Source of the DNA: an uncultured virus (IMG/VR IMGVR_UViG_3300009034_001352)
Lineage: Duplodnaviria; Heunggongvirae; Uroviricota; Caudoviricetes
Virus record (IMG/VR): IMGVR_UViG_3300009034_001352
Location: 1 to 64,000 of that record
Strand: one strand, 5' to 3'
DNA length: 64,000 nt
Every line of letters begins with the position of its first letter. The first letter of the stretch is position 1. Both the position numbers and the translations under genes were made by a program. Below are positions 15,583 through 49,488 of the stretch, piece after piece. The notes under the pieces are model-generated. The model worked only from the letters and a program-made list of their open reading frames with translations, searched no databases and was not told the DNA's origin.

Positions 15583-15624
15583 TTTAAAGTAGTTTTTGGA
15601 CTACTTTTCATTAGATACCTCCTT

Positions 15625-15655
15625 AAAAAAAGGCAACCTGATGAGGGTTGCCTTT
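15625..15655 (-). terminator. Intrinsic terminator between convergent operons
   Basis: aaaggcaacc / ggttgccttt stem, T-run on the minus strand. Confidence 0.7.
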
Positions 15656-15865
15656 GTAAGAAGTATAAGAAGATATTATTAAGAAATACTAACAGTATCT
15701 CTTTTGTGATATCTTATATTATCTATATTATGTGACATTTTGCTAAAACAAATATCACACAATATAGATGTTCCATGTCTATTTTCTATTTCAATTAAAT
15801 CCCGATGTTTTATTTCTTTATTGCAAAAATCACAATAATATTTATTTTCTTTCATAATTTTTCTC

Positions 15866-16893: not shown

Positions 16894-16919
16894 AATATCC
16901 TCCTAAAAATATTTTATAG

Positions 16920-16987
16920 TTTCCTACGAACCTGAAATTAATCAGGTTTTCGGCTGGTTACCATTCAGCTCTCATTCAGATAGGAAA
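16920..16987 (-). ncRNA. Hammerhead-like ribozyme (type I topology, variant core)
   Basis: Minus strand: uuccuau-CUGAAUGA-gagcug..cagcc-GAAA-accuga..ucaggu-UC-guaggaa. Confidence 0.55.
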
Positions 16988-17011
16988 AATTTATTTTTTT
17001 ATAATCAATAT

Positions 17012-18389
17012 TTATCTATCAAATTCACATTTTTCAATATGACAAAAATCATCAACTCTGCAACCATAACATATAGTTAAATTGGGACAATATTTTTGAA
17101 CAATTCCATAAAAATCATTCCCAAATTTATTATATGTTTCATTTAAAATTTTAGTAAACATTCTACTATTTGGATGATATATTATAGGGCAATTATTACA
17201 ATCTTCATCACATAATTTTTTTCTGTTCATTTATTATTCTCCTTTTATTATATTAAAATTTAGCTTTTATAGTTTGATAAATAGCATAAAAAAATCCAAA
17301 TATTAAAATTATTGAAAATGAAGTACTAATAAATACATCTAATCCATATAATATTAAATTGATCATAATGTTCTCCTCTTTATTTTATTATTTTTCCAAT
17401 TTTTATATGGAGTGTAGTCAGGATCTAAAAAGGTAGGTTTACTTATTTCTTTATTAACAAAATCATGTATAAACCATCTTATTTGTTTGCCTTCAAAATT
17501 AGAAGGCATATTACGTATTTCACATAGCATTTGATCTGTAAGTTCATGAAATATATCTATAATATAAGTTGATCTTTCTTTTAATGTCATATTATCTCTC
17601 CTGTATAATTATTTTATTTTCAATAAGATAATTATAAATTTGTTTGATTTTATTATAAACTTTTATTTTTGTAACTTTTGCAATAATATGAAAAAAAGTT
17701 TTTTCTTGACTAAAACCAATATCTTTTATTTGTTGCATCATAATTTTACCTTTTTTTGAATTTAAATAATGTTGTACTTTTTGAGCATGATTTTTTAATT
17801 CATTATCTTTCATCTTCTTACCTCCTAAAAAATAATTTTTACTTTTTTAAATGACTTTTTTTAGAACCAATTGGACCAACCAAATTCATCAAAAATTCGC
17901 ATAGTAAAATCATTTTCATTAAACTGAAGCGTTATTTTACAATCTATATAATCAGTTACAATTTCAGGCATATTTATTATTCCTTTTTTATCTTTTTCTT
18001 GTAATATATCAATTTCTTTTTCTGTGAATGCTTTCATTCTTCTTCTTTCTTTTTCTTTAATACTCATTACATTCCCCTCTTTATCATATAATGATTTGTT
18101 TTATGTTCAAAAATGTTCAAAATAACACTATCTTTTTTCTTCATATTAGTTATTTCTTTAAACATTTCTTTTACATTATTTACATAGATTTCATATACTT
18201 TTCTTGATCTTTTTGTTTTGTTATAATATATAGTATATCCCTTCATTTATCTTCCTCCTTGTTTATAAAAGAAATTAAATCTTTTTCTGCTTCTATTAAA
18301 GTGTCAATTAATTTTCTATTTTTATCAATTAAATTTGTGATGATATCATCAAAATCTATAATAGTATTATCAGAAGTAGATTGTTCCAT
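17012..18389 (-). other. Cluster of small leftward hypothetical ORFs (17012-17230, 17363-17590, 17592-17813, 17861-18067 and shorter ones)
   Basis: Most are preceded by AGGAG/AGGAGG-type SD on the minus strand. Confidence 0.55.
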
Positions 18390-18668
18390 GTTAATCCTCC
18401 TAAAAAATGTTTTTTACTTTTTTAAATGATTTTTATTATTTAAAGATTCTTTTTTTATTATTATTGAATATACTTATAATAAAATAACTTTATTTTTCAT
18501 ATTTTCAATTTTCATGTTTAATAATTTTCTATTCTTTGCAAAAGTTATATAAAGAATTTTCATATTATTTTTGAATGATAAAAAATAGTAAATTCATTTT
18601 CTTGAATATCTAATGTAAAACTTCCAGGAATAGAAGAAATATTCTTTTTAATCAATTGAATTAAAAAA

Positions 18669-19076
18669 TTATTTTCCAGTACAAACTTTCTTGATTTTAT
18701 TTGCTACTATACATAGTGCAGATAATGTGATTAACTTTTCTGTCAGTTTATCATTTTCCATTAATAATTCTTGAATATTCTTTTTCTTTTTTCTTAAAGA
18801 TAACCATTCATCTTTTTCCTTCCTGCATTTTTCTAATGATTCATCTAACCATGAAAATAATACCCCATTTTCTGTTCTGTATTCATAGAAACATTCTTCT
18901 TTTTTTGTGAAAGGATTCAGAAATTTTTCATATATTTCTTTTCCTGATTTACATTTTGATCTTCCTGATTTATCCCAGAAATTGGATTTTGTGTAATATC
19001 CATTTACTTTATTTAATGTTATTTCATCGATTGGTAAGCTCGTTTTTGGATACGTAATCCCAAATTTTCTTTCCAT
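18669..19076 (-). CDS. Hypothetical protein (DUF3873-like GKEIYEKF...YEYRTENG.LFS segment)
   Basis: ATG at 19076 after GAGGAGG; the upstream extension in the ORF track is ribozyme sequence. Confidence 0.6.
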   Translation of the reverse strand: MERKFGITYPKTSLPIDEITLNKVNGYYTKSNFWDKSGRSKCKSGKEIYEKFLNPFTKKEECFYEYRTENGVLFSWLDESLEKCRKEKDEWLSLRKKKKNIQELLMENDKLTEKLITLSALCIVANKIKKVCTGK

Positions 19077-19084
19077 AATACCCT

Positions 19085-19173
19085 CCTCAAGGTTGTTTCG
19101 GCAATGCTTTGCCTTCATCAGTACCTCAGCATCAGAGGTAGACAGACCCCGGTTTCCCAGGGTCACCTTAAGG
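19085..19173 (-). ncRNA. Hammerhead ribozyme (type III topology)
   Basis: Minus strand: uGUC-uaccuc(ugaugcu)gaggua-CUGAUGA-a-ggcaa(agca)uugcc-GAAAC-a; closed by ccuuaaggu/accuugagg. Confidence 0.85.
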
Positions 19174-19208
19174 AATAGGTCAGCTGTGCCTATCCCTCTA
19201 TATTTCTA

Positions 19209-19652
19209 TTAATATAGTTGATTATATTCTTTTTCATTATTCCTCCTTTCTTCAATCTCTTCCTCCTCTTCAATTTCTTCTTTCAAAAGATTTTCCCATT
19301 CATCGTATAAATCTAAAAAATCGCCATCTTCAATACATTCTATAATTGCTTCTTCTTCCGTCAATTTTCTCTCATCGTCTGTAGTGAATATTTCTGCCTC
19401 TTGATCCCAAGAACCCCAGCTCTCAAGATAATAAGATACATCAATATTTCCTAATCCCCACGCTTGGAGTATCAGAATAGGTTGCTCATTTTCTGGATTT
19501 GGATATGTTCCAGAAGTTTGTGTACTAATTTTCCCATCTTCATAGATCCAGATTCTGGACCCAGAATTATTGAAAACCATTTCTTTGTGAACTTCCATCC
19601 AATTGATGGAAGCAAGTGTTTTTTGAAATCTCTTTGTATTTTGTTCGTTCAT
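19209..19652 (-). CDS. Hypothetical acidic protein
   Basis: ATG at 19652 after GAGGAGG; shares leader accttgaggagggtattatg with the 19076 gene. Confidence 0.65.
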   Translation of the reverse strand: MNEQNTKRFQKTLASINWMEVHKEMVFNNSGSRIWIYEDGKISTQTSGTYPNPENEQPILILQAWGLGNIDVSYYLESWGSWDQEAEIFTTDDERKLTEEEAIIECIEDGDFLDLYDEWENLLKEEIEEEEEIEERRNNEKEYNQLY

Positions 19653-19786
19653 AATACCCTCCTCAAGGTCGGGGGCTTTTCTTGCCCCTCTAATTATAAT
19701 ATACAACAGAAAAATTAACTTCTGCTCCAGTCAATATTAATTGATTTATAACTTTTCTTATTACGTTTTTATTCCATATAAAATAA

Positions 19787-19864
19787 AATCGACTTGAGAA
19801 TCGAACCCAAGATAATCAACCATGTCGATTAGATGCAGAATCGAACTGCAATTAAAACCCATCT
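19787..19864 (-). ncRNA. Two tandem T-loop (tRNA-elbow-like) hairpin elements
   Basis: ugcaGUUCGAUUCugca and cuuggGUUCGAUUCucaag, each preceded by GGUU and closed by an outer stem. Confidence 0.5.
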
Positions 19865-20042
19865 TGTTTTTGTGCTCCTTGATTACTCCTCATTTTCAAT
19901 CATCCCAGTTTCTCTCAACTAATTTCATCTTGGATAATGGATACTGGACTTTCTTGATCTTAAGATCTCCGTGCCCCTGGTCTCCATCCAAGATAGGTTT
20001 TCTCCCCCATCTTGGACAAGGTTTTTATTACCTTATATTAAT

Positions 20043-20071
20043 AATATACTATATATGTAAGCAAAAGTAAA
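20043..20071 (-). promoter_or_regulatory. Leftward sigma70-like promoter
   Basis: TTTACT-N17-TATATT on the minus strand. Confidence 0.6.
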
Positions 20072-20300
20072 GTACTTTTTGTAAAATAATAAAAAAAATA
20101 CATCTTTTTTTAAATAAAATCGTATACTTTCTCATACCTCTTTTACATGAAATATTTAGACGCTTATATCTTCAAAATAATGAACTTGTTTTATAAAAAT
20201 GTACTGTACTTTACAGTTTTTTATAAATAACATAATTTCTAATTCTTTATAACATAAGGAGATAGAAGTCTGTCTTTTAAGCTAATATTTCTCATATTTT

Positions 20301-20345
20301 ATAAATCATATAATTACTTATAATATAAGTAATTATATGATTTAT
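20301..20345. repeat. Perfect 22-bp inverted repeat with 1-nt centre
   Basis: ataaatcatataattacttata-a-tataagtaattatatgatttat. Confidence 0.9.
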
Positions 20346-20576
20346 TTATATTTATACTATATAAAAAAGTGGTATATAAGTATCACTTTTGAAATAAAAC
20401 CTTACTACGCCAATCTATGAGCGTCTAATATTCTTATAGTATTGAAAAAGTAAGAGGGGTCCATTACAAAATGTATTGAATCCCTCTTTTTCGAAGTATA
20501 TATGAAATAAACAAAAATAAAAAAAGTGTTCATATATATTATAATAAAAAATAATCAAAATTTATATATTTTTCTA

Positions 20577-20605
20577 TTTACTTTTTTGAAAATATTTTGT
20601 ACTAT
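20577..20605 (+). promoter_or_regulatory. Rightward sigma70-like promoter
   Basis: TTTACT-N17-TACTAT. Confidence 0.6.
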
Positions 20606-20612
20606 TATATTA

Positions 20613-20748
20613 GGATGGTTGAGTATAGCATATATTATATAAGAAAATTTACAGCCCTTATTAAGGGGCGTCTTTTTTGGGTTTACTCAACCATCCAAAA
20701 TGCCCAAAATACCAGAAATGGTAAGACGCTCTTTAATAAGGGTTTTTT
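20613..20748 (+). promoter_or_regulatory. Leader with interleaved inverted repeats (A-B-A'-B'-polyU)
   Basis: A 20613-25 / A' 20684-96; B 20653-74 / B' 20723-44. Confidence 0.6.
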
Positions 20749-21104
20749 ATTGGAGAAAATAAATGAATGCATCTGGACAATTGATGGAATTATTGAAACA
20801 AAATATAGATATCAATTCTAAAATTACATGTGGTAGATGTAATAGGAAACATAAAATATCAAGAATGTTTAGATGTTATGAGGGTTTGATTTGGTTTTGT
20901 AATGAATGCGCAAGTATTCATTTTAATATGAAAAGACCTAATATATTTGAAAGAAGAGATAAATGAATAGAAATGAAGGAATATGGATACATCATAAAAG
21001 TGTATTTGAATTTCCGATTACTATAAAAGAATTTGTTAAGAATGATGAATTAGATTATAATCCAACATATAGTTTTATTTTTAATAAAGATAAAGGAGGA
21101 ATAA

Positions 21105-21281
21105 ATGATAATAAAAGAAGGTGATTGTTTTTATAAACGATACGATAAAAGGAAATATCATATAATCAAAATAATAGAAGACAATAATAAAAAATTAGTC
21201 ATTTATAAATTTTATGGTATTCACAAATAGTGGTGGCAATTATACAATAGAAAGTTTGAAGATGATGGAAGATTGGTTTAA
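21105..21281 (+). pseudogene. Small phage ORF with internal TAG (FYGIHK*WWQ)
   Basis: Strong SD and ATG; in-frame TAG at 21228; frame continues to TAA at 21279. Confidence 0.45.
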
Positions 21282-21322
21282 ACATAATTTATATATATTT
21301 AAAAGAAATAAAGGAAAATTAA

Positions 21323-22886: not shown

Positions 22887-23333
22887 ATGAAAAGGAATGG
22901 GTATTTTGGAATAGGGATTGAGCAGGGAAAAACAAAGTTTAATTATTGGACTTTGTTCAGAACAGCTCAAATATTTAATGCAGATTTTTTGTTTACTATT
23001 GGTAAAAGATTTGAAAAAGGACATCCAGATACTATGAAATCATTTAGACATATTCCAACATATAGTTATATTGATTTTGATGATTTTAATAATCATAGAC
23101 CGTATGGATGCATTTTAGTTGGAATTGAATTGATTGATTCTGCTGTTAATTTAAAAAACTTTGTACATCCAAAACGAGTATGTTATTTGTTAGGGGCAGA
23201 AGATAATGGATTAACAAAGAATGCAATTAAAAAATGTCAATATTTAGTCAAACTTCCTGGGGAGAAAAGTTTGAATGTGGCTGTAGCTGGATCTATTGTC
23301 TTATATGATAGAATTCAAAAAGGGATTGTTTAG
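22887..23333 (+). CDS. SpoU/TrmH-family (SPOUT) RNA methyltransferase
   Basis: N..TL.RTA, LLGAEDNGL, SLNVAVAGSIVLYDR. Confidence 0.9.
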   Translation: MKRNGYFGIGIEQGKTKFNYWTLFRTAQIFNADFLFTIGKRFEKGHPDTMKSFRHIPTYSYIDFDDFNNHRPYGCILVGIELIDSAVNLKNFVHPKRVCYLLGAEDNGLTKNAIKKCQYLVKLPGEKSLNVAVAGSIVLYDRIQKGIV

Positions 23334-27992: not shown

Positions 27993-28412
27993 ATGAATAA
28001 TAAATTTATTGTTACAAGTGATTGGCACTTACGGTATGATAAACCAAGATGCCGATTGGATGAAGATTGGATTGAAACACAAAGAAAAACTATTCAATTT
28101 GTATATGATGAAGCTATTAAAAGAAGCGCAGATATAATTATTTGTGGGGATCTTTTTCATGAACCTAAACCTAGAAATCCACAAGAATTAGAAATAATGA
28201 TTATTAAAGCTGCAAAAGAATTTTATGAAAAAACTAATAAATACACATATATAATAATAGGTAATCATTCTTTATTATATCATAATATTAAAAACAAAGA
28301 TAAAGGAAGTATAGGTGTTATTTTAGCATCTGGTTATTTTAAGTTATTATCACAAAACGGTATTAAAATAAATGATGTAAAAATAAAAGGATATAGTTAT
28401 GGAGAATGTTAA
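27993..28412 (+). CDS. sbcD: SbcD/Mre11 metallophosphoesterase, N-terminal part
   Basis: SDWH, GDLFH, GNH motifs. Confidence 0.85.
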   Translation: MNNKFIVTSDWHLRYDKPRCRLDEDWIETQRKTIQFVYDEAIKRSADIIICGDLFHEPKPRNPQELEIMIIKAAKEFYEKTNKYTYIIIGNHSLLYHNIKNKDKGSIGVILASGYFKLLSQNGIKINDVKIKGYSYGEC

Positions 28413-28923
28413 AGAGATATGGAAAGATATTCCAGGATATAAAGGAATATATCAAGTATCTAATTTTGGAAGAGTAAAAAGTTTAAAAAGAAAATTATGG
28501 AATGGATCCGGTTATTTTTATTGTAAAGAAAGAATATTAAAGAGTAGTGAAACAAAAAAAGGATATGTTTATTATTATTTAAGAAATAAGAGGAAAAAAA
28601 GAAAAAGTGAATTCAGTCATAGATTAGTTATGTATGCTTTTGTAGGAAAAAATACAAGTAAAAAAATTGTAGTAAATCATATTGATGGAAACAAAAGGAA
28701 TAATTGTATAGATAATTTAGAATATATTACATATAAACAAAATAATAGACATGCTTGGGATATAGGATTATATAATGATGAAACAAGAAAGAAATTATCT
28801 GAAATAAGTAAAAATAAAAAAGTATCTAAAGAAACGAAAAAGAAAATGTCTGAATCAGGTAAAATTGCTTGGATAAAAAGAAAGGAAAGAATGTTAAATG
28901 AAAGAAACAGTTGTATTGCATAA
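28399..28923 (+). CDS. NUMOD4-HNH homing endonuclease
   Basis: EIWKDIPGY.G.YQVSNFGRVKS; HRLV; VNHIDGNKRNN...NLE. Confidence 0.92.
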   Translation: MENVKEIWKDIPGYKGIYQVSNFGRVKSLKRKLWNGSGYFYCKERILKSSETKKGYVYYYLRNKRKKRKSEFSHRLVMYAFVGKNTSKKIVVNHIDGNKRNNCIDNLEYITYKQNNRHAWDIGLYNDETRKKLSEISKNKKVSKETKKKMSESGKIAWIKRKERMLNERNSCIA

Positions 28924-29383
28924 AATGATTTTTAAAAATGAAGTTCCTCCTTTTATAGATGGTTTTACAGCAAAAGAAATGTTAGAACGATTTCCAATAG
29001 CAAAATATATTTGTACTGGAGATAATCATCATGGGTTTATTTATGAGGATAATTATAGATATGTGATAAATCCAGGATGTTTGATTAGACAAACTGCTGA
29101 TTTAAAAGATTATCAACCTTTTATTGTTTATTTGGATATGGAAAAAGAAATTGTAAAAAAAATATTTGTTCCTGATGATTGTGATATAGTAGATGATGAA
29201 TATTTGAAAGATGAAGAAAAAAGAAATGATAGAATTGAGGCTTTTGTTGATTCGATTAAGAAAGGTAAAAATGTTAGTTTGTCTTTTGAAGATAATTTGA
29301 GAAAAGCGGTGCTGAAAAATAAAAAAGAGATAGGAAAAGGAGTAATTGATATAATTCAAGAGATTATGGAGGAAGTGAGATAA
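28898..29383 (+). CDS. sbcD: SbcD/Mre11 metallophosphoesterase, C-terminal part
   Basis: VLH, TGDNH, NPGCL.R motifs completing the fold. Confidence 0.82.
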   Translation: MKETVVLHKMIFKNEVPPFIDGFTAKEMLERFPIAKYICTGDNHHGFIYEDNYRYVINPGCLIRQTADLKDYQPFIVYLDMEKEIVKKIFVPDDCDIVDDEYLKDEEKRNDRIEAFVDSIKKGKNVSLSFEDNLRKAVLKNKKEIGKGVIDIIQEIMEEVR

Positions 29384-35068: not shown

Positions 35069-35758
35069 ATGGATACTACAAAAAAATTAAAAGTTGGGGA
35101 ATTGATCCTTGACTGGAATTTATGGCCACGTTATAAGGTGGAATTTTTAGATTCTACGAATATAACAAGAATGAAACAAGCTATAAAAGCTGGGTTGAAA
35201 CTTCCGTCTATTATAGTTAATAAAGCTGATTATAGAATAATAGATGGTTTTCACAGAGTAAAAGTTTATAGAGATTTATTTGGTGAAGAGCATGATATCA
35301 CTGTTAAATTGAGAGAATTTAAAAATGATGCAGAAATGTTTATGGAATCTGCCAGACTAAATTCTGTTCATGGATTACCTTTAAGCCCACAAGATAAAGC
35401 TCATGTGATTTTAAGAGCAAGACGATTTAAATATCCTTTTCCAGTTATTGCACAAATAATAGGAATGGATGAAGATACTTTAAAAAAGTTTTATAAATCA
35501 AGAATAGCAAAAACTAAAAAAGGAGAAACTTTAGTTTTGGCGAATGGTGCTTCTGATTTAAGTGATTTGGATAGACCATTAACAAATAATGAAGAAATAC
35601 ATGCAAGATCGGCTAATGGATGTAAAGCTTCTGTTAATATAGCTTTATTGTTATATGCTTTAAAAGCTGATAATGTTAAACTAACAGAAAAAACAGTGTC
35701 AAATCTTATACAACTGAAAGAAGAAATAATAAGGATTTTAAAAAAGGCAGGTGTATAA
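35069..35758 (+). CDS. ParB/Srx-domain protein
   Basis: LPSIIV...IIDGFHR; N..HGLPLS..DK; following HTH. Confidence 0.85.
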   Translation: MDTTKKLKVGELILDWNLWPRYKVEFLDSTNITRMKQAIKAGLKLPSIIVNKADYRIIDGFHRVKVYRDLFGEEHDITVKLREFKNDAEMFMESARLNSVHGLPLSPQDKAHVILRARRFKYPFPVIAQIIGMDEDTLKKFYKSRIAKTKKGETLVLANGASDLSDLDRPLTNNEEIHARSANGCKASVNIALLLYALKADNVKLTEKTVSNLIQLKEEIIRILKKAGV

Positions 35759-36552
35759 TGTTAAAAGATAAAAAAGTTGAGAATTCACTGAAAATATTGA
35801 TAAGACAATATTATGATTATAGTAATGAAAGAATAGCTATGGATGGAAGATTAGGAATTAAGAAAGATGGGGAATTAAAGAAGAAAACTCCTGATAGAGA
35901 TGAAATAATGTTGGCTTATTTATACACAAGAAGAAAAGAAATAATAACTGTGGAGAAAGAAATTGAAAAAGAAATCAGAAAAGAAGTGAACATACATACT
36001 CTGTGGAAAGGATTTTTCGAAGATGTTATAGGAGTGGGCCCAATAATGGCAGCGGTAATTATCACTGAATTTGATATTAAAAAAGCTAATACAGTTTCAA
36101 AATTATGGGCTTTTGCAGGGATAAATCCTGGTATAGTATTTGGGAAAACTGGAAAACTTGGTAATATAAAAACCTCTAATATTTTGATAAGACAAGATAA
36201 AAAAACAAAAGGATTTTTATGTCCATATAATCAGTTTTTAAAGTGTAGATTGTTAGGTGTTTTGGCAGGAAGTTTTTTAAAAGCATCATCCCCATATAGT
36301 AAGTTTTACTATGATTATCGTTTTAGATTGGTGTCCTTAACAGATGAGGAAAAAGAAAAAAGAGGATTATGTAAGTCAAAAAATCCAACCGATAAAAATA
36401 AACCATATGCTAGTCATATAAATAACAGAGCTAAAAGATATATGATAAAGATGTTTTTGAAAGATTTATATGTTGCGTGGAGGACGTTAGAAGGATTACC
36501 AGTTAGAGATCCATATGCTGATGAATATTTGAATAGAAAACATGCTGGATAA
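35758..36552 (+). CDS. tasA: Nop-domain (IS110 C-terminal-like) protein without nuclease domain, TasA-like
   Basis: GVGPIMAAVII...VSKLWAFAG, YNQFLK, H..NRAKRYMIKMFL.DLY..WR; no DEDD/RuvC; flanked by 36-nt arrays. Confidence 0.8.
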   Translation: MLKDKKVENSLKILIRQYYDYSNERIAMDGRLGIKKDGELKKKTPDRDEIMLAYLYTRRKEIITVEKEIEKEIRKEVNIHTLWKGFFEDVIGVGPIMAAVIITEFDIKKANTVSKLWAFAGINPGIVFGKTGKLGNIKTSNILIRQDKKTKGFLCPYNQFLKCRLLGVLAGSFLKASSPYSKFYYDYRFRLVSLTDEEKEKRGLCKSKNPTDKNKPYASHINNRAKRYMIKMFLKDLYVAWRTLEGLPVRDPYADEYLNRKHAG

Positions 36553-36554
36553 TT

Positions 36555-36671
36555 GAGCGAGCTACAAATAAGGAGTAAACCATTGTTCTTGAGCGAGCCA
36601 GGAGATTTGAGTAAACCAAGAAAATAGAGCGAGTCAAGGGAAGAGAGAAAACCATCTCTATAGAACGTATT
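36555..36671 (+). repeat. TIGR-like array 2 (3 units of 36 nt)
   Basis: gagcgagc-type repeats at 36555, 36591, 36627, 36663; gagtaaacc-type at 36573, 36609, 36645. Confidence 0.85.
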
Positions 36672-36762: not shown

Positions 36763-38607
36763 ATGTATGAAATAATGAAATTATTTAAATCAGTATTAGT
36801 AAAACAGAAAAATGTTACAGGATCTCCTTATATTAGAAAAGGAATATTATATACTCCTGATGTTGGAAATGAATATAAGGATATTGATTCTATAATAAAT
36901 ATGGCAGAAAAGATATTTTTACTTTCTGCAAAACAAATAAATAGTTCTTTTCATAAATCATGGCAGAAAATCAGAGATGTAAATATAGAACAGCTTGTAT
37001 TAGAGCAAATTATCCATTATATAACTACATATGGTTTTGAATCTCTAAATATTTATAATAGCGAATCTGTATATATTCCAAGAGAGAAATTAGAATTACC
37101 AGAAATAGATATAGATAAAATTGAGTTGATTGTTATAAAAGGAATTACTAAAGAAGAATTAAAGGAAAAATTAATGAAAATGATGTGTTCTGGAATTGCT
37201 CTTGATGAAAATACTATTAAAGATATTGTAAATATTATTACTGATAATGATATTGGATTTGATAATGAAGATGTTAGAAATATAAAAAATAAAGAAATAA
37301 AATCAATTATAATGGATAAATTAAGTTTAGTACCAGATGATCCAGTTGAATATTTGAGATATATTATTTATAAAATGACAGGTGAAACTTTGTTGATTAA
37401 AAATAAAGAGTTAATAGAAAAGATAAAAGAAAATCAGAAAATATTTTCTCTGTTAAAAATTGATGAACATAGTCAAAGAAAATTAGCCAGTATATTTTAT
37501 CGATTCAAACCTTTATTTTTAGCAATGAAAGGAACCCCAACAACAAATAAAATAATAAATAGAATAAGAAAATTAGCAAAGAAATATCATAGACCGATGA
37601 AACAAGATTATCTAAATAATATAACAAATCAAAAGTATATAGATATACTTTTTTTCAAGAAAGAACTTAATAAGGTTAATATTTTCAGAAAAATAAGATT
37701 AGCAAATGCTATAAAATATAGAATGTTAAATAGTGGTTCAATTGTATACAGAATAAGAAATGGAAAAAGTTATTCTACAGAAAATAAAAAGAGAGATAAA
37801 GATTATTATGATAATATATATGAAATAATAGAAAAGAGTATAAAGGATGATATAAAAGAGATCATAGGAAATAAGAAAATATATATACCAGATTATATAA
37901 AGTATACTTTACCATCTTCTGAAAAACAATTTTCTGATAATGTTCCATTAGGTACAAATATAACTGTGAAAGAGAATATGGTTTTTGGGGTGTACTGGAA
38001 GAATGTTGATAAAAATAGAATTGATTTGGATTTGTCTTTATTATCTGTTGATAGTAAATTTGGATGGGATGCAAGATATAGAAATGAAGAAAGAAGTATA
38101 TTGTTTTCTGGGGATATGACAGATGCTTGTGATGGAGCTTCTGAATTATATTACATAGAAAAAAATAAACCCGGTATTTATTTAGTGATGTTAAATTATT
38201 ATAATTATAATAAATACGAAGAAAAAGATATTCCAGTTCCTTTTAGAATATTTATTGCAGATGAAAAAATAAATTTGATTGAAAAGAATTATATGGTTAA
38301 TCCTGAAAATATATTGATAAATATAAATACTGAAATAAAAAGAAAACAGAAATTATTAGGATTAGTAAAAATAGATGAAAATAAAAGTATATTTTATTTT
38401 TGTGAAACAAACATAGGAATGTCAATAACATCAAGTGATAATGAATATATGAAACATTGCAGAAATTATTTAAAAGATTTTTATAGTAATTTAATGAATT
38501 TAAATGATATGATAGGAGATGTAACTAAGAAAAATGAATGTGATATTGATTTATCACCTAAAAATCTAACAAAAGATAAATTATTGGATATTATAATAAA
38601 GACATAA
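36763..38607 (+). CDS. Large helical protein with C-terminal TerD-like domain
   Basis: FGVYW...RIDLDLS...GW...FSGDMTDA..GASE motifs. Confidence 0.6.
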   Translation: MYEIMKLFKSVLVKQKNVTGSPYIRKGILYTPDVGNEYKDIDSIINMAEKIFLLSAKQINSSFHKSWQKIRDVNIEQLVLEQIIHYITTYGFESLNIYNSESVYIPREKLELPEIDIDKIELIVIKGITKEELKEKLMKMMCSGIALDENTIKDIVNIITDNDIGFDNEDVRNIKNKEIKSIIMDKLSLVPDDPVEYLRYIIYKMTGETLLIKNKELIEKIKENQKIFSLLKIDEHSQRKLASIFYRFKPLFLAMKGTPTTNKIINRIRKLAKKYHRPMKQDYLNNITNQKYIDILFFKKELNKVNIFRKIRLANAIKYRMLNSGSIVYRIRNGKSYSTENKKRDKDYYDNIYEIIEKSIKDDIKEIIGNKKIYIPDYIKYTLPSSEKQFSDNVPLGTNITVKENMVFGVYWKNVDKNRIDLDLSLLSVDSKFGWDARYRNEERSILFSGDMTDACDGASELYYIEKNKPGIYLVMLNYYNYNKYEEKDIPVPFRIFIADEKINLIEKNYMVNPENILININTEIKRKQKLLGLVKIDENKSIFYFCETNIGMSITSSDNEYMKHCRNYLKDFYSNLMNLNDMIGDVTKKNECDIDLSPKNLTKDKLLDIIIKT

Positions 38608-38862
38608 AAAGTTCCTATGAATAGATTATGGAGGAGAGATCCTCTATTAAATTACTTTTTGTCTTTAAAATAAAAGCATAGAAAGTTCCTATAAATAAAA
38701 AACTTGAAATTTTTTACTTTCTGTTTTTAATGATAAGTCAAAGAAAGTTCCTATAAATAAAAACTATGGGTGTTTACTTACTTTCCGACTTTTTTAGAAA
38801 TTATTGGGATCAAAGGAAGTTCCTAAAAATTAAGACTGCAAATCTATTACTTCCCGATTCTT
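38598..38862 (+). ncRNA. Array of four covarying hairpin RNA units
   Basis: AAGTTCCTA at 38609, 38683, 38745, 38817, each closed by TTACTT with compensatory stem changes. Confidence 0.7.
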
Positions 38863-38886: not shown

Positions 38887-39051
38887 ATGACAATTAAACA
38901 AGTGACATTAAGAAGAGTTTTTAATTTAGGTAATTATGAAACTCTTCATATAGAATTACAAGCGGATATAGATAAAAATGAAGATGTAAAAGAAGTATTG
39001 GACGATTTACATCAAGAAGCTAAAAAATATAAAAGATATACGAAATCTTAA
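38887..39051 (+). CDS. Small phage protein (NLGNYE motif)
   Basis: AGGAG SD; MTIKQVTLRRVFNLGNYETLHIEL. Confidence 0.6.
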   Translation: MTIKQVTLRRVFNLGNYETLHIELQADIDKNEDVKEVLDDLHQEAKKYKRYTKS

Positions 39052-43097: not shown

Positions 43098-45674
43098 ATG
43101 AAACAAGGATTTTTTAAAGGATTTGAATTATCAGAAAAAGAGATTAAACAGAAAAATAAAAAACAAAAAAAATATACTTGTGAAGATTGTGGATTATATA
43201 AAAATTGTCTTTCTCCAAAAATGAAATCTACTGGAAAAGGAAAAAAGAAAATACTTATTGTGGCAGAAGCTAACGGAAAAAAAGAAGATGAAAAAAATAT
43301 CCAATTGATAGGAAAATCAGGCCAATTATTAAGAGATTATTTAGAAGATGTAAATCTAGATTTAGATGAGGATTTTTGGAAAACAAATGCAATTTGTTGT
43401 CATCCTGAAAACAATAGAACTCCAAATAATAAAGAAATAAAATGTTGTAGAAAAAATCTTTTTGAAACTATAGAAAAATATAAACCAAAAGTAATTATTC
43501 CTATGGGAAAGATAGCTTTGGAAAGTTTGTTAGGTGAAAGAATTTCTGGTAGAATTAAAAATGTTAATTATTCGGATTGGGTTGGTGAGATTATACCAGA
43601 TCAAGAGTTAAAAGTTTGGATTTGTCCTGTTTATCATCCTTCTTACATTTTAAGAAATGAATGGGATATTGTTTTAAAAAAAATATGGAAAAAATCTATT
43701 GATAAAGCAATACAAATAGTTGAAAAACCATTTTATATTCATAATTATGAAAAAGATGTAATTACATATAAAGATAAAAAAGATGCCATTGAATGTATGA
43801 GAAATATTAAAGCAAATGGAAATATAGTAGTTTTTGATTATGAAACTACTGGATTAAAACCTCATAGAGAGGGACATAAAATTATTTGTTGTTCTATTTC
43901 TGATGGAATATTAAGTTTTGCTTTTCCATTTTTTGAAAATAAAGATTTTAAAAAAGAATGGAGAAAATTAATTGGATCAAAAAAAACTTTTTGTATAGCT
44001 CATAATGCAAGATTTGAAGGATTATGGACTAAAAAGATTTTAGGATTTTCAGTTAAAAATTGGTATTGGGATACTATGATAGCTCAATCTATTATAGATA
44101 ATAGAAAAACAACAAAATTGAAATTCTGGACATATGTAAAATTTGGAGTATTAGGTTATGATAATGAAATTGATAAATATATTAGAGGAAAGAAAAAAGG
44201 AGAAGATATAAAATCAGCTAATGCTTTTAATTTAATTGAGAATGTTCCTATTAAGGAATTATTAAAATACAATGCTTTGGATTCTTTATTTACTTATAAA
44301 TTATATGAAAATCAATTATATAAAATTAAAGGAATATTAAAAGATGGATTTAATTTATTTATGAAAGGATTTCAATCTTTATTACAAGCACAATTAAATG
44401 GAGTTAGAATTAATTTAGATTTAATGAAAAAACAGAAAGTTAAATTAAAGACTAAATTAGAAATTATAAAGAAAAAAATAATGGATAGTGAAGAATTAAA
44501 AAAATGGGATAGAGAGAAAGAATTTGAGTTTACAAGTCCGAAACAATTATCTTATTTGTTATATGATTGTCTTGAATTAGATGTTATGAAAAAAACAATT
44601 AAAGGAAATTCATCTGTTGATCAGGAGGTTCTTGAAAAAATTGATTTACCAATTGTTAAAAATATATTGAGATATAGAAAATGGGAAAAAATATCAAGCA
44701 CTTATTTTGCTCAATATGAAAGAGAGCAAGTTAATGATTTTTTACATCCATTTTTTAATTTGGGGACGAGTGGAAAAGGTAGGGGAGTAAAAACTTATAG
44801 ATCCTCTTGTAATTCACCTAACTTACAGAATGTTTTTAAAAGAAATAAAAGAGCGAAAAAAATGATTCGCGGTCTTATTATTCCAAGAGAAGGAAATAAG
44901 TTGATTGAATATGATTTTAAAGGCATGGAAGTTTCCACAGCTGCATGCTATAACAAAGATCCAAATCTAATAAAATATCTTAAAGATGATTCTACGGATA
45001 TGCATAGAGATTGTGCAGCAGAATTATTTATGTGTTCTAAAGAAAAAGTTAATAGTTATGAAAGATATACAGCAAAAAATAAATTTGTATTTCCGGAGTT
45101 TTATGGTAGTTATTATGAGGATGTGACTCCTAATTTATGGGAGAATATTGAGAAAGATACTAAAGATAGATTAAAAAAAAATGGAATTAAAAATTATGAT
45201 CAATTTGAAGATCATGTTATGGAAGTTGAGAGAATATTTTGGGAAGATAAATTTCCTGTATATGCTGAATGGAAAAAGAAAACTATAAAAGAATATGAAA
45301 AAAAAGAATATGTGGAATTATTTACAGGTTTTCGATGTAAAGGGCCTATGAAAAGAAATGAAATTATAAATTATAGAATTCAGGGATCTGCTTTTCATAT
45401 CCTTTTATGGACATTTAATCAAGTAATGAAAGAAAGTAGAAAATTTAATAAAAGTTTTTTGATTGGACAAATACACGATTCCATGTTAGCTGATATTTAT
45501 CCAGATGATGAAGAAGAGTTTGATTATTTAGTTTGGTATTATGGAACACAAAAAATACCAGAATGTTGGGATTGGATTATTGTTCCATTAAAAATAGAAA
45601 AAGAAAGATCAGCTATAAATGGAAATTGGGCTGAAATGGAAGATCAAGGATATTTAAAAGGAGAAAAAGAATGA
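43098..45674 (+). CDS. polA: Family A DNA polymerase with N-terminal family-4 UDG-like domain and 3'-5' exonuclease
   Basis: C..C.L, AEA.G..ED, NAICC.P..NR.P, YHPSY; DYETTG, HNARFE; PNLQN, YDFKGMEV, K.KFVFPEFYG, QIHDS. Confidence 0.92.
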   Translation: MKQGFFKGFELSEKEIKQKNKKQKKYTCEDCGLYKNCLSPKMKSTGKGKKKILIVAEANGKKEDEKNIQLIGKSGQLLRDYLEDVNLDLDEDFWKTNAICCHPENNRTPNNKEIKCCRKNLFETIEKYKPKVIIPMGKIALESLLGERISGRIKNVNYSDWVGEIIPDQELKVWICPVYHPSYILRNEWDIVLKKIWKKSIDKAIQIVEKPFYIHNYEKDVITYKDKKDAIECMRNIKANGNIVVFDYETTGLKPHREGHKIICCSISDGILSFAFPFFENKDFKKEWRKLIGSKKTFCIAHNARFEGLWTKKILGFSVKNWYWDTMIAQSIIDNRKTTKLKFWTYVKFGVLGYDNEIDKYIRGKKKGEDIKSANAFNLIENVPIKELLKYNALDSLFTYKLYENQLYKIKGILKDGFNLFMKGFQSLLQAQLNGVRINLDLMKKQKVKLKTKLEIIKKKIMDSEELKKWDREKEFEFTSPKQLSYLLYDCLELDVMKKTIKGNSSVDQEVLEKIDLPIVKNILRYRKWEKISSTYFAQYEREQVNDFLHPFFNLGTSGKGRGVKTYRSSCNSPNLQNVFKRNKRAKKMIRGLIIPREGNKLIEYDFKGMEVSTAACYNKDPNLIKYLKDDSTDMHRDCAAELFMCSKEKVNSYERYTAKNKFVFPEFYGSYYEDVTPNLWENIEKDTKDRLKKNGIKNYDQFEDHVMEVERIFWEDKFPVYAEWKKKTIKEYEKKEYVELFTGFRCKGPMKRNEIINYRIQGSAFHILLWTFNQVMKESRKFNKSFLIGQIHDSMLADIYPDDEEEFDYLVWYYGTQKIPECWDWIIVPLKIEKERSAINGNWAEMEDQGYLKGEKE

Positions 45675-46411
45675 AAGCAAGTAAATTGTATATTAATGAT
45701 TTTGGTAAAGAAAAGTGCGTATTCTGTAATTCTGATTGTTCTAAAAAGATTTTGGTTTCTTCTTTTATTAAAAAAACATTTACTAATTATGATTTATTAC
45801 AAAATCCAGATGGGTTATATATGTGTAAAGGATGTTATTTTAGTATGACAGATAAAAGTATAGAGGAATTGATAATGCCTGATGGAGAAATTAAAACTAA
45901 TCAATCAGCTCGTACCTATTCTTGGGTTCTTACTAAGAAGAAAAAAAGAGCTTTTTCAAAAAGACATATTAAAGAGATAAAAGAAATAGTTTTAAATCCT
46001 CCTAAACCTCCTTTTGCTATTGTTATTTCTGATAAAGGAAAAAAACATTTAATATTCAGGTCATTAGTATCTTATTCAAGAGATGATTATGTATTACAAT
46101 TTGAAGAAGAATCAGTATTTGTTAATGTAAAAAAATTAAAAGATAGAATAGAATTATGTGAGAGAATAATAGCTTTTTGTGGAAAAATTAACATTTTGAA
46201 ATATTCAAAATTCAAAATTTCTAAACATAGTTTACCAAATGTTTCGGAATCTTTATTAAATCAATTTTTTTCTATTAAAGAAGAAAAGCTAATGGAGTTA
46301 GCTATATTTTTATCAAAAAATAAAAAGGAGTGTTATAATGAGTATTATTTTATTGAAAAGTCAAAAAGAATTCAGACAGAAAATAGCGGGTTTATTTTGT
46401 TTGATGAATGA
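45671..46411 (+). CDS. csf1: Type IV CRISPR-associated Csf1 (Cas8-like)
   Basis: CVFC...FTNYDLL...CKGC Zn motif; LNPPKPPF; KKHL. Confidence 0.75.
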   Translation: MKASKLYINDFGKEKCVFCNSDCSKKILVSSFIKKTFTNYDLLQNPDGLYMCKGCYFSMTDKSIEELIMPDGEIKTNQSARTYSWVLTKKKKRAFSKRHIKEIKEIVLNPPKPPFAIVISDKGKKHLIFRSLVSYSRDDYVLQFEEESVFVNVKKLKDRIELCERIIAFCGKINILKYSKFKISKHSLPNVSESLLNQFFSIKEEKLMELAIFLSKNKKECYNEYYFIEKSKRIQTENSGFILFDE

Positions 46412-46793
46412 AGAAAATGAAGAAGTAGAGGAAAAAATTAAAAATGAATGTATTAAATTTATTTCATTATTACCTGTTTTTTTCTCCGATTCCTTAGATA
46501 GGAAAACATTATGGGATCGTATATCCCATGGAATTTATTCTGCTTCCACAAAGTGTGATAATGATTTTGAATCTTTTCTTAATTTTGTATTAGAGTATAT
46601 TAAAGCAGAAGGAAATAAAGTCGCTAGTAATTCTGAATTTAGTTCTTTTTTATCTTTTGTAATTGAAAAATCAGATGGGTGGAAAATAAAATTTATTACT
46701 TTATGTCAAAATAAATATTATATTTTAGTTGCATATGCTAGACAAAAATGGGAGGAGAGAAAAAAAGAAAAAAAGAAAGGAGAATTAAAATGA
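46338..46793 (+). CDS. cas11: Type IV-B small subunit (Cas11-like)
   Basis: Small helical protein between csf1 and csf2. Confidence 0.6.
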   Translation: MSIILLKSQKEFRQKIAGLFCLMNEENEEVEEKIKNECIKFISLLPVFFSDSLDRKTLWDRISHGIYSASTKCDNDFESFLNFVLEYIKAEGNKVASNSEFSSFLSFVIEKSDGWKIKFITLCQNKYYILVAYARQKWEERKKEKKKGELK

Positions 46794-47719
46794 TAAAAAC
46801 ATATAAAATATACTGTTTAATGGAATTGTTAAGTCCTCTTACTCATATGATGGAAACATCAGGTAATGAGTCTTTAATTAATAGAGAACCTATTTTTTAT
46901 GATAAAAGAATTATTCATATCCCTGTTATATCTGGTAATAGTATTAGGCACAGAATTTTAAGACATCCCGGATCTTTATATTTAATTGAACAGATGGAAA
47001 TAGAAGGAAAAATGGGATTTGATCAATTGAATTTTATGATGTATGGTGGAACTCTTTGTGAAACGAAAACAACTACTAATTTGAAGAAAATTGCACTTAT
47101 GGAAGAGTTGTTTCCATTATATAGATTATTAGGAGGTTGTCTTAAAAATCAGATAATTTCTGGTAGTTTAGATGTATGGAGAGGTTTACTTATATGTGAA
47201 GAAAATAGGGAAACAATTAATAAGTATTTACCGGAAGAATATTATATTAATAAAAAATTATTTCCTGCTGATATGTTTGTTGGTAAATATCAATATACTC
47301 GTGGTGATATGAAAAATATAAAAAGTGTTGGTAAATTGATTAAAAATTTTAATGTAATAGAAAATAGAGAAAAATCTAATCTTATGATATATAATGGACA
47401 ACAAGTTAATCGTAATAGTTTCTTTTTTCATGGTTTTGCTACAAAATATGTATCTGAAATTGAAATAGGATGTATTTTTCATTGTTTACAATTATGGTCT
47501 GAAAATTACAGTACATTGGGGGGTATGATTGCTAAAGGACATGGAAAAGTAAATTTATCCTGTTTTTTAGAAAATAAGGAAATTGATATATCTAATTGTG
47601 TTCAAATGTATATTGATCATGTTCAAAAATATAAAAATGAAATGATAAATTGGTTGGATGAAATATTTCCAAAAAAAGAAAATAAAAATAATATGACAGG
47701 AAGTTTATTTAGTGAGTGA
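46790..47719 (+). CDS. csf2: Type IV Cas7-like backbone Csf2
   Basis: LLSPLTH, PVISGNSIRH, FP...LLGG, G-loop LGGMIAKGHG. Confidence 0.85.
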   Translation: MIKTYKIYCLMELLSPLTHMMETSGNESLINREPIFYDKRIIHIPVISGNSIRHRILRHPGSLYLIEQMEIEGKMGFDQLNFMMYGGTLCETKTTTNLKKIALMEELFPLYRLLGGCLKNQIISGSLDVWRGLLICEENRETINKYLPEEYYINKKLFPADMFVGKYQYTRGDMKNIKSVGKLIKNFNVIENREKSNLMIYNGQQVNRNSFFFHGFATKYVSEIEIGCIFHCLQLWSENYSTLGGMIAKGHGKVNLSCFLENKEIDISNCVQMYIDHVQKYKNEMINWLDEIFPKKENKNNMTGSLFSE

Positions 47720-48389
47720 TAATTTTAAAGTAATATGTGAATTATGTTCTCCTTTATGTGAGGATGCTCCTCAATTAGATGCTTTACTTTGCAATGAACT
47801 TATATTTAAACAAAGATTATGTATATTTGGTAAGAAATTGAGTAGAGGAGATCCAATAAGTGAATTCAAAGAACCTAGAATACCATTGCGAAGTATTAGA
47901 TATAATAATATGCCCATTTATTTTTCATCAAATCCTATTTATATATGTAATTATGAATTTAGGGAAGATTTTTGTTATCATTTTGAATCAGAATTATTTT
48001 TTTTATTATTAAATATGGAAAGAAAATCTATTTCAGCAACATCTGGAATATATAAAGATAGACGTATTCCAATTAGATTAAAGTTAGTAAAAAAGATTGT
48101 ATGGTTTTGTTGTGGAACAAAAAATAGTGTATTAGAAATATTACAAAATATATCATCAATAGGGACAAAGCGAAAACAGGGATTTGGAATTGTGTTAAAA
48201 TGGGAAGTGGAAGATGTAGAAAAGGATTATTCTTTTTTTATTAAAAAAGATAATAAACGGATATTGATGAGAAATATGCCAAAAGATTTAATTGAAGACG
48301 ATGTTATAGGTTATACAATTAAATATGGAGCGGTATCTCCTCCTTATTGGCATCCAGGACGTTTTATGAATATAGCTTTTCCATTATAA
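47712..48389 (+). CDS. csf3: Type IV Cas5-like Csf3
   Basis: L.SPL...LDALL, WFCCG, IGTKRKQGFG, PPYW. Confidence 0.8.
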   Translation: MSDNFKVICELCSPLCEDAPQLDALLCNELIFKQRLCIFGKKLSRGDPISEFKEPRIPLRSIRYNNMPIYFSSNPIYICNYEFREDFCYHFESELFFLLLNMERKSISATSGIYKDRRIPIRLKLVKKIVWFCCGTKNSVLEILQNISSIGTKRKQGFGIVLKWEVEDVEKDYSFFIKKDNKRILMRNMPKDLIEDDVIGYTIKYGAVSPPYWHPGRFMNIAFPL

Positions 48390-48391
48390 TT

Positions 48392-48769
48392 ATGTTGATT
48401 TATTTATATCGAGTAAATAGAGGATTGAACAGATGCATACGTACTGCCTATAGTTTTGGATTTGAAAATATTTTTTTAGTTGATTGTGGTAAATATGATA
48501 ATAGATTATTTTCTGCAAAAAGAATAAGAATTAATCGTACTTTAAATTTTTCATTTGGAAAAGGTTTATTATTAGAGAAAAATAAAGGTAAGGAAATTAG
48601 ATCAGTTAATCTAAAAGAATATGATTTTATTATATTAGGAGGAGAATCAATAATTCTTACAAAAAAAATATATGATGGTAATTTTTGTTATATACAAACA
48701 AAAAATGATTTTTGTTTGACATCTCCTGTAGCTTTATCTATTTTTTGTTGGGAATATCAAAAATGTTAA
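48392..48769 (+). CDS. Minimal SPOUT/SpoU-like methyltransferase
   Basis: NRCIRTAYSFG, ILGGE, CLTSPVALSIFCWE resemble SPOUT motifs 1-3. Confidence 0.55.
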   Translation: MLIYLYRVNRGLNRCIRTAYSFGFENIFLVDCGKYDNRLFSAKRIRINRTLNFSFGKGLLLEKNKGKEIRSVNLKEYDFIILGGESIILTKKIYDGNFCYIQTKNDFCLTSPVALSIFCWEYQKC

Positions 48770-49488
48770 TAGAATGTGATAGACATACAGAAAAAGATTT
48801 GAAATTATATGATGAATTAAATGGAATGGATTTATGTAATTTTAATTTAAGAAAGATAGATAAAAAAGAAAAAAAAGCTATTGATACAATTAAAAATTTT
48901 GTTGTTAGAAATAAATATTATTGTGCTGTATCTTGGGGAAAAGATAGTGTTGTAGTTATTAATTTATGTTTAAAATTATGTTTAAATATTCCGATTGTGT
49001 GGATTAAAGTACATCCTATTTATAATCCTTATTGTGAAAAAGTACGGGATATTTTTTTAAAAAAATACCCAGAAATTAATTATCATGAATATTATATTAA
49101 TTGTAAAGTTGATGACAATGGAATAATACATGCTAAAGGAACTTTAGAAAAGGGATTTGAATACGCTGTTCGGGATTTTGGTGAAAATTATATTACAGGG
49201 ATTAGATCTGAAGAATCTGCTATTAGAACATTAAGAAGTAAAATGTACGGTGTGATGTCTAAAAAAACATGTGCCCCAATAAATTATTGGAAATATGAAG
49301 ACGTATTTGCTTATCTTGCTTATTATGATTTACCAATTCATCCAAATTATGCCATGTTAGGGGGAGGTAGATATAAAAGAAAATATTTACGAGTGGCTTC
49401 ATTAGGAGGAAAAAGAGGAAGGGAAAGAGGTCGTTATGCATGGGAACAAGAATATTATTCGGATTATATAAGAAAATTTGAAAAATAA
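48763..49488 (+). CDS. cysH: CysH/PAPS-reductase-like PP-loop protein
   Basis: SWGKDS PP-loop, GIRSEES..R, PINYW..EDV..Y, LPIHPNY. Confidence 0.88.
   Translation: MLIECDRHTEKDLKLYDELNGMDLCNFNLRKIDKKEKKAIDTIKNFVVRNKYYCAVSWGKDSVVVINLCLKLCLNIPIVWIKVHPIYNPYCEKVRDIFLKKYPEINYHEYYINCKVDDNGIIHAKGTLEKGFEYAVRDFGENYITGIRSEESAIRTLRSKMYGVMSKKTCAPINYWKYEDVFAYLAYYDLPIHPNYAMLGGGRYKRKYLRVASLGGKRGRERGRYAWEQEYYSDYIRKFEK

Follow-up and report, generated by a model that had tools for sequence, protein, structure and literature searches.

The question raised by this locus is what four short hairpin RNAs, predicted directly behind a TerD-like gene of an uncultured tailed phage, have to do with the protein encoded by that gene. 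The locus lies in a stretch of 64,000 nucleotides, from here on the window, which covers positions 1 to 64,000 of the IMG/VR record IMGVR_UViG_3300009034_001352, a tailed-phage genome of 65,213 bases with a G+C content of 26%. The partner-protein gene is an open reading frame (ORF) of 614 amino acids (36763-38607, + strand) located in the replication region, where it is followed by an ORF of 54 amino acids and then by a gene for a DnaB-like helicase. The four RNA units form an array on the same strand (38598-38861). A first description, made from the letters alone and called here the sequence-only reading, placed four units spaced by 74, 62 and 72 nt at the stop codon of this gene. The positions of the AGTTCCT cores (38610, 38684, 38746 and 38818) and the matches to a covariance model confirm this arrangement; unit 1 overlaps the TAA stop codon (38605-38607), and the end of unit 4 is 25 nt away from the next ORF (38887). 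The comparison with homologous loci makes it very likely that the array and its homologues constitute an RNA family that is absent from Rfam and functionally tied to this protein.

The comparison of homologous loci defined units of 55-70 nt, the two ends of which pair into a handle with an A-N-A/C internal loop. In each unit of the window the handle consists of an outer helix, a 3-nt A-N-A bulge on the 5′ side facing a single nucleotide, and a 6-bp helix ending with a G-C and a U-A pair, while the UCCUA sequence is unpaired and followed by a variable insert. The conserved parts are the A-N-A bulge, R-GUUCCU and UAC. The stems are as first described, with variants aaaagt/actttt, gaaagt/actttc (twice) and ggaagt/acttcc in the array, and the compensatory changes recur in the family. 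The covariance model was built from 79 family members, two of which were this phage's own units 2 and 4, and in the 64 kb it matched the four units at 39.7-51 bits (E values from 1e-12 to 3e-9), while the next matches were partial and scored at most 15 bits. Unit 1 (38598-38666, + strand; 39.7 bits) contains UUAUGGA (38626-38632), which is not a hairpin loop, as had been proposed, but a bulge between AAUAGA/UCUAUU and a hairpin with a GAGA loop. Unit 2 (38672-38728, + strand; 50.7 bits, in the training set) contains CUUGAAA (38703-38709), the anticodon loop of tRNA-Ser UGA. This loop is closed by 5-6 A-U pairs and not by the originally proposed 7-bp stem, because the seventh pair would use an A of the handle helix. 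Unit 3 (38734-38792, + strand; 51 bits) contains the UGG-class loop UAUGGGU (38765-38771) and is better read as AAAC-[UAUGGGU]-GUUU, one base off the earlier register. Unit 4 (38806-38861, + strand; 47.1 bits, in the training set) contains CUGCAAA (38836-38842), the anticodon loop of tRNA-Cys GCA, closed by just three pairs. The folding z-scores against shuffled sequences were -3.3 for unit 1, -0.95, -0.90 and -0.89 for units 2, 3 and 4, and -0.86 for the whole array; the folding support from the window alone is weak, and the support comes from the homologous loci.

To define the family, 7999 candidates were scored and 2181 relatives of the 614-aa protein were obtained, with 1713 protein clusters at 50% identity scoring E ≤0.001; the alignment of the best 120 relatives was used to fetch loci. 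The viral set contained 79 loci, from the best 80 of 125 confirmed stretches, and the prokaryote set 52 loci from assemblies, of which some appear to be binned phage. With a strict two-stem scan, units were detected on the gene strand in 74 of 79 viral and 36 of 52 prokaryote loci, and in the viral loci 196 units were on the strand of the gene and none on the opposite strand. When near-identical genes were merged and a native-order form of the RNA, described below, was added, units with the handle lay beside the gene in 67 of the 71 distinct viral loci and in 39 of the 50 prokaryote loci. Most of the blank loci have little or no upstream DNA, and the covariance model found units in five of seven retested blanks. 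The reverse search used a consensus pattern derived from the protein-derived set, and it returned at least 123 viral loci, a set that overlaps the protein-derived one; among the 80 with full flanks, the gene was within 4 kb in 66. Ten records of the remaining 14 loci were searched whole, and the gene was located elsewhere in four of them, including all three near-complete ones, while the six records without the gene are 2-21% complete. In a sample of 301 Bacteroidota genomes the partner gene was present in four. When these four and 76 others were scanned with the RNA model, with at most 70 candidates scored per genome, matches were obtained in all four gene holders, of which at least one had supplied a training sequence, always beside the gene, and in no genome of the 76.

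The Rfam check suggested by the sequence-only reading returned no known family: no match reached the gathering score in the window, a single chance match (E 2.8) was obtained around the locus, and a scan of 16 related loci, mostly picked for their tRNA-like units, gave only tRNA matches. The RNA or its tie to this protein was not found described in the literature searched, a coverage outside which most subscription papers and the papers on ROT/TROVE and RING architectures lie. Neither the RNA nor its link to the protein is described in the accessible parts of PMC4201824, PMC7824862, PMC7159879, PMC11482910, PMC11208441, PMC13728456 and PMC12045711. The gene is present together with 3, 2 and 5 nearby model matches in the cultured Synechococcus phages S-CRM01 and S-CBWM1 and in the gut phage record Phass-1, respectively, and none of these matches is annotated as RNA. 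In Phass-1 (OQ749652.1; 7167-7640 of locus L257) a six-unit array with Cys-GCA and Lys-UUU loops is located 1.3 kb downstream of the partner gene. This array is partly beneath an annotated hypothetical coding sequence (CDS). It is followed by what we take to be the start of a tmRNA. In S-CRM01 (HQ615693.1; 3750-3960 of locus L255) a short hypothetical CDS on the reverse strand, g173c, spans the units located upstream of g174 and is probably a false gene call.

Covariation was used to evaluate the pairing of the handle. Among 79 similarly long units, 94.1% of the cells were paired, as compared with 35-54% in slid controls, and 266 two-sided changes were counted versus 90 in shuffles. These units had been chosen by a scan requiring pairing, and a test on units chosen by sequence anchors alone is less circular. 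Among 265 such units, 255 retain outer pair 4 (131 expected) and 257 retain inner pair 3 (121 expected). The covarying pairs use A-U, G-C, U-A and C-G, and compensatory changes with G-U pairs are also found.

The inserts were compared with anticodon loops. The family contained 364 distinct units, and after removal of 28 with loops longer than 60 nt, 281 inserts of viral and 55 of prokaryote origin were tested. The reference consisted of the 7-nt loops in 348 ARAGORN tRNA calls made on the fetched loci, and a match required the exact loop with at least three closing pairs. The data showed that 40 of 281 viral inserts carry an exact anticodon loop, while 3.8 (maximum 10) were obtained in 300 dinucleotide shuffles; for the prokaryote inserts the result was 4 of 55 versus 0.4 expected. 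In controls that keep the hairpin, 36 matches in the sense orientation compared with 2 in the reverse complement, 5 in the reversed and 4 in the complement sequence, and the reverse strand gave 4 exact loops versus the 40 of the viral inserts. Permutation of loop letters left 2.3 matches as compared with 35 of 156 loops, and when tRNA calls sharing 15-mers with units were removed, 39-40 matches remained versus 4. The commonest loops were Asn-GUU, Ser-UGA, Lys-UUU and Leu-UAA, followed by Cys-GCA, Tyr-GUA and Ile-GAU; 18 triplets were counted among the exact loops, a few of them probably by chance. Adenosine was found at the wobble position in 5 of 44 CU-NNN-A loops, while the background was 37% (p 1e-4). 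The anticodon-loop mimics are a statistically supported class with an approximately ten-fold excess in the family.

In the window itself the likeness of all four inner loops to anticodon loops stands for two of them. Units 2 (Ser-UGA) and 4 (Cys-GCA) pass the test; CUUGAAA and CUGCAAA each occur in six of the 348 tRNA calls (six tRNA-Ser and six tRNA-Cys), CUUGAAA is present in six distinct viral units, and CUGCAAA is also found in a Phass-1 unit. Units 1 and 3 fail, and their proposed reading as His-like loops with A34 was rejected, with CUAUGGG and UUAUGGA found in none of the 348 calls.

Units 1 and 3 belong to a separate UGG class. UGG is present in 96 of 281 inserts versus 39 expected, and in 62 of 83 short inserts it is located in a loop with Watson-Crick closing pairs (35.5 expected, maximum 47). 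Of these closed loops, 41 start with A, as do the commonest phage D loops of this data set, AAUGGUA and AAUUGGUA. Folding software pairs the GG of UGG with CC of the handle in 38 of 85 cases. T-box RNAs pair with the NCCA end of tRNA. Such pairing is not favored here, where the base following UGG is A in 38, U in 20, C in 14 and G in 13 of 85 cases, which is near background. A T-loop motif was detected in 26 of 364 units. Some of these contain a T arm alone; in about a dozen the module is permuted as in YrlA, with the T arm followed by the closed acceptor stem and then the D arm, and in six the handle encloses a complete tRNA-like body. Thirty further distinct segments are tRNA-like RNAs in native order, in which the loop-closed handle replaces the anticodon loop. 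The tRNA-like inserts thus have three topologies, one of them YrlA-like. Rfam scores three native-order segments as tRNA at 50-60 bits (3791-3903 of locus L222, 2768-2883 of L010 and 3635-3748 of L247), and databases may list RNAs of this form as tRNAs or pseudo-tRNAs. The D/T module was not found in the array of the window. Among 68 distinct viral arrays, an anticodon unit is present in 21, a UGG unit in 38 and a T-loop unit in 8.

The AlphaFold model of the 614-aa protein (pLDDT 88.5, pTM 0.88) consists of a helical, basic N-terminal part (residues ~1-385) and a TerD-fold domain (~401-570), in agreement with the TerD-like C-terminus first proposed. Residues 401-570 match the TerD structures 2qz7 (Z 9.9, rmsd 3.1, 146 residues aligned) and 2kxt (Z 8.4, rmsd 3.6, 147 aligned), and the Foldseek E value for the TerD match was 4e-5. 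In the alignment of the best 120 relatives the acidic residues D421, D423, D451 and E461 are invariant, and the conserved basic residues include K65, K213, R247, R309, R320 and R332, with many located in residues 1-385. The conserved lysines and arginines of this part agree with RNA binding, as far as can be judged from sequence conservation. Folded alone (pLDDT 80.7), residues 1-385 have no clear relative among solved structures; the best match was an unrelated helical chain, with Z 7.7 over 70 residues. Foldseek also gave long alignments of low probability to large multidomain chains (TM ~0.1, rmsd >20), which were regarded as noise. The protein has no sequence match among solved structures, none to Pfam TerD (PF02342) despite its TerD fold, and no family above the cut-off in Pfam, PHROGs, NCBIfam or PADLOC. 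No effector, toxin or nuclease domain was detected. The full-length structural relatives are uncharacterized phage proteins of ~700 aa and the MXAN_6230/SCO0854 RING family.

The likeness to Ro60 and Y RNA that the sequence-only reading had proposed holds for the layout and was not detected in the protein. The partners of Ro60 (Rsr, TROVE plus vWA) are the bacterial Y RNAs YrlA, YrlB, Yrn1 and Yrn2, and the 5′ motif of YrlA/YrlB is GNCGAAN0-1G, as given in the accessible part of PMC4201824. Similarly to the Ro60/Y RNA systems, at least two small RNAs are encoded on the same strand within a few kb of a gene for a large helical protein, the ends of the RNAs pair into a bulged stem, a conserved motif is located in the 5′ strand, some relatives' RNAs contain a permuted tRNA module, and RtcB is a recurrent neighbor. 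The GUUCCUA sequence shares five of seven letters with the vertebrate Y-RNA motif GGUCCGA. In contrast to YrlA/YrlB, the four units carry AGUUCCUA and no GNCGAA motif, and the Rfam YrlA model had no match in the window or in the 16 related loci. The arrays contain up to seven units, the short units have exact anticodon loops, which YrlA lacks, and two further topologies exist, the native tRNA with the handle for its anticodon loop and the whole tRNA inside the handle. No Ro60 homology was detected in the protein: Pfam gave no TROVE (PF05731) match at E up to 1, the profile of residues 1-385 matched one TROVE protein, used as a single-sequence template, with a probability of 0.3%, and Ro60 was not among the matches listed in fold searches with either the whole or the N-terminal model. 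The C-terminus is a beta-rich TerD fold instead of vWA. The ring of Ro60 is closed by its C-terminal vWA domain. TROVE is present in one of five genomes holding the system described here, which is too few to judge mutual exclusion. The best reading is that the system is Ro60/Y RNA-like in layout and built from other parts.

Other known systems resemble parts of this one. The predicted structure aligns with those of the MXAN_6230/SCO0854 RING proteins (NF041916; Pfam Prok-RING_4) with TM 0.73 by query over 572 residues, and with ~700-aa phage proteins named 'cytoplasmic protein' or 'tellurium resistant like' in BFVD with E from 1e-17 to 1e-16 and TM ~0.5. The MXAN_6230/SCO0854 proteins presumably combine ROT/TROVE-like repeats with TerD, according to Pfam, and may have a role in RNA processing. 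The sequence match to this family is weak and lies in the TerD region; the protein lacks a RING finger, and together with five relatives it scores 12-30 bits against the 600-bit NF041916 cut-off. An RNA partner of either group was not found in the literature searched. The C-terminal TerD fold with its invariant acidic residues is shared with the tellurite-resistance and Ter stress proteins, from which the protein differs by the fusion behind a 385-aa helical region, by the missing Pfam TerD match, and by the absence of ter genes among the recurrent neighbors scanned. Tandem RNA units beside a protein gene are also known from type III toxin-antitoxin (ToxIN) systems and TIGR/CRISPR arrays. The units described here differ from those in being end-paired hairpins with tRNA-like inserts and not near-identical pseudoknots or spacer guides, in having no Rfam match, and in the lack of a detectable toxin or nuclease domain.

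The gene neighborhoods were compared across loci. In 95 of 116 loci the units are upstream only, which makes the downstream array of the window unusual, and the last unit usually ends 7-30 nt before the start codon, with the ribosome-binding site usually outside the hairpin. Elsewhere units are located 1.3-2.5 kb from the gene, some of them among tRNA genes, or elsewhere on the contig. Neighbors were named from a scan of 36 cluster representatives and 150 of 191 prokaryote neighbors, and are given here as raw counts. No constant partner gene was found among them; in 152 distinct loci RtcB was counted 8 times, RlaP 7, a CCA-adding-type enzyme 6 and Band-7 5 times. RtcB is present in 6 of 50 prokaryote loci, three of these being Chryseobacterium. 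Among viral loci, 19 of 102 lie among tRNA genes (at least three tRNA calls).

These data lead to a proposed mechanism. The gene and the array would share one transcript, from which the individual RNAs would be cut. A promoter scan found 17 sites, fewer than the 23.6 in shuffles, and no terminator. The basic helical part of the protein would grip the handle, as Ro60 grips the stem of Y RNA, and direct binding of the RNA by the protein in the particle is probable. The insert would then be held out to enzymes recognizing tRNA, and it appears somewhat probable that such recognition is why the inserts are kept. Units 2 and 4 would offer stable bait to host nucleases cutting the Ser-UGA and Cys-GCA anticodon loops, in a phage for which no tRNA gene was found, whether in the window or in a second, 84-kb record (74% complete). 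Other units could serve as bait for, or docking sites of, enzymes that repair tRNA or recognize its elbow, and the TerD domain could be a regulatory part binding a ligand or metal. Phage countermeasures to tRNA-cutting defenses are documented, and include, in the accessible part of PMC13728456, the T5 tRNA-Lys against PARIS and tRNA-Tyr against Septu/retron Eco7. Like these, the units may be a phage RNA answering host anticodon nucleases. The counter-defense tRNAs, however, are working tRNAs that resist or outnumber the nuclease, while the units lack the cloverleaf of acceptor, D, anticodon and T arms, as the tRNA-gene scan of the window also indicated, cannot decode and keep canonical loops, and therefore would be bait rather than replacements. 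Taken as a whole, gene and array may form one RNA-protein module that displays tRNA pieces to tRNA-acting enzymes and uses its anticodon units as nuclease bait, and we regard this proposal as evenly balanced between right and wrong. That the units serve as decoys of defense nucleases in particular is a tentative suggestion, as is the view that interchangeable tRNA parts on one protein-bound handle make a modular ribonucleoprotein, independent of Ro60, that could serve phages and some bacteria as a reprogrammable bait panel against tRNA-cutting defenses.

Several results weigh against the bait proposal. In the window the anticodon stems are weak, and the predicted minimum-energy folds do not contain them. 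Related phages share inserts by descent, which inflates the counts; on 22 distinct loops the wobble-adenosine test gives p 0.048, and distinct CU-NNN-AA loops are real in 10 of 13 (p 0.064). Shared descent cannot, for its part, explain many different loops. A pure anti-defense decoy should be phage-biased, and the difference between viral (40 of 281) and cellular (4 of 55) anticodon inserts is not significant (p 0.19). The interchangeable anticodon mimics of the sequence-only reading, although in excess far above chance, fit only ~14% of the short viral inserts, and the wider theme is several tRNA parts. For the UGG class a putative D-loop mimic fits best, but there are other readings, among them the possible pairing with CC of the handle, and 105 of the 180 units in the 68 viral arrays fall in no class. 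RNA-repair neighbors are present only at a minority of loci, and none of 60 scanned window ORFs matched RtcB, RlaP or a CCA-adding enzyme.

The rival explanations differ in what they make of the inserts. In a general tether or gate of the Ro60/Y type, the RNAs would bind the protein and link it to an enzyme of decay or repair (PNPase-like, RtcB), it would be irrelevant which anticodon is displayed, and the tRNA-like inserts would be leftovers of descent from tRNA genes or mere stabilizers of the RNA. The YrlA-like topology of handle, T arm, closed acceptor stem and D arm in several loci, the RtcB and RlaP neighbors (in cell genomes mainly RtcB), the many unclassified inserts, and the presence of at least two RNAs per locus, mostly simple hairpins, as for Y RNAs in the accessible part of PMC4201824, all agree with this explanation. 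It is harder to reconcile with the exact 7-nt loops of many tRNAs on unrelated stems, which the decay of one ancestral tRNA would not yield, with the full tRNA-like units that mostly lack an anticodon loop, so that the short anticodon units do not simply derive from them as fragments, or with the failure to detect a Ro60 fold, and we consider it rather unlikely, if still the strongest of the rivals. If the RNAs instead held the protein inactive, cleavage of an anticodon or UGG insert by a nuclease could free or switch it and start a counter-response, for example tRNA repair. A common handle with different cleavable loops would suit the surveillance of several nucleases, and the accessible part of PMC7824862 describes the TerD domains of Ter systems as sensors that bind ligands. 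Such a sensor is nevertheless improbable, with no evident effector domain, no fused longer forms found (in itself weak evidence) and no constant partner gene.

The usual position of the units just upstream of the start codon, and the 25 nt between the last unit of the window and the ORF at 38887, would also suit a cis-regulatory leader, in which the units are repeated binding sites in mRNA and the protein controls its own or the next gene. This explanation is more improbable still: all units of the window are downstream of the partner gene, other units are 1.3-2.5 kb off or among tRNA genes, the hairpin usually leaves the ribosome-binding site outside, and autoregulation needs neither whole tRNA bodies nor anticodon loops. 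The simplest rival, chance hairpins in AT-rich DNA or repeats at the DNA level, could draw on the low G+C content and on units 2-4, which fold no better than shuffles. It has practically no probability left against the strand specificity (196 versus 0 in the 79 viral loci), the compensatory changes with G-U pairs and the tRNA modules within the same handle; the covariation and the strand bias refute it.

Other features of the window and of related loci are recorded here. Directly upstream of the partner gene is a TIGR-Tas system (35069-36670, + strand), with a ParB-like ORF (35069-35758), a TasA-type ORF (35758-36552) above the NCBIfam NF052498 cut-off, and a dual-repeat array (~36555-36665) with a 36-nt period; a tasParB-tasA operon is described in the accessible part of PMC12045711. 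Only one other distinct locus (L039/L040) has a ParB-like/TasA-type pair close to the partner gene, which indicates no steady link. An operon at 45671-49485 (+ strand) is type IV CRISPR-like, with csf1, csf2 and csf3 matches under the cut-offs and a CysH-like gene. We take it to resemble type IV-B. A region of ~5.7 kb (15580-21320) has no ORF of at least 110 aa on the + strand and four on the - strand, and no clear short-range repeat array. At 27993-29383 a gene for an SbcD-like metallophosphoesterase is apparently split by a NUMOD4/HNH endonuclease ORF (28399-28923), possibly an intron or insertion, and the window scan gave no Rfam match at gathering score in this region. A gene for a SpoU-family RNA methyltransferase (22887-23330), present in a phage without a detected tRNA gene, could act on host tRNA. 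In another locus (L206, 8337-9254) a gene similar to Tad3, the type I Thoeris inhibitor, is near the partner gene.

The system would be a second, widespread RNA-protein system of the Ro60/Y RNA type, in which both the protein and the RNA handle are different. As each short unit isolates a single part of tRNA, the purpose of tRNA-mimic Y-type RNAs becomes directly testable by a seven-base swap, and the cultured carriers S-CRM01 and S-CBWM1 open the system to experiment. If the anticodon units are bait, they would represent a route of phage counter-defense not found in the literature searched. The 7-nt loops of an array would then tell which anticodon nucleases the host has, here those cutting Ser-UGA and Cys-GCA, a change of seven bases would retarget a unit, and the arrays would provide a map of host anticodon nucleases.

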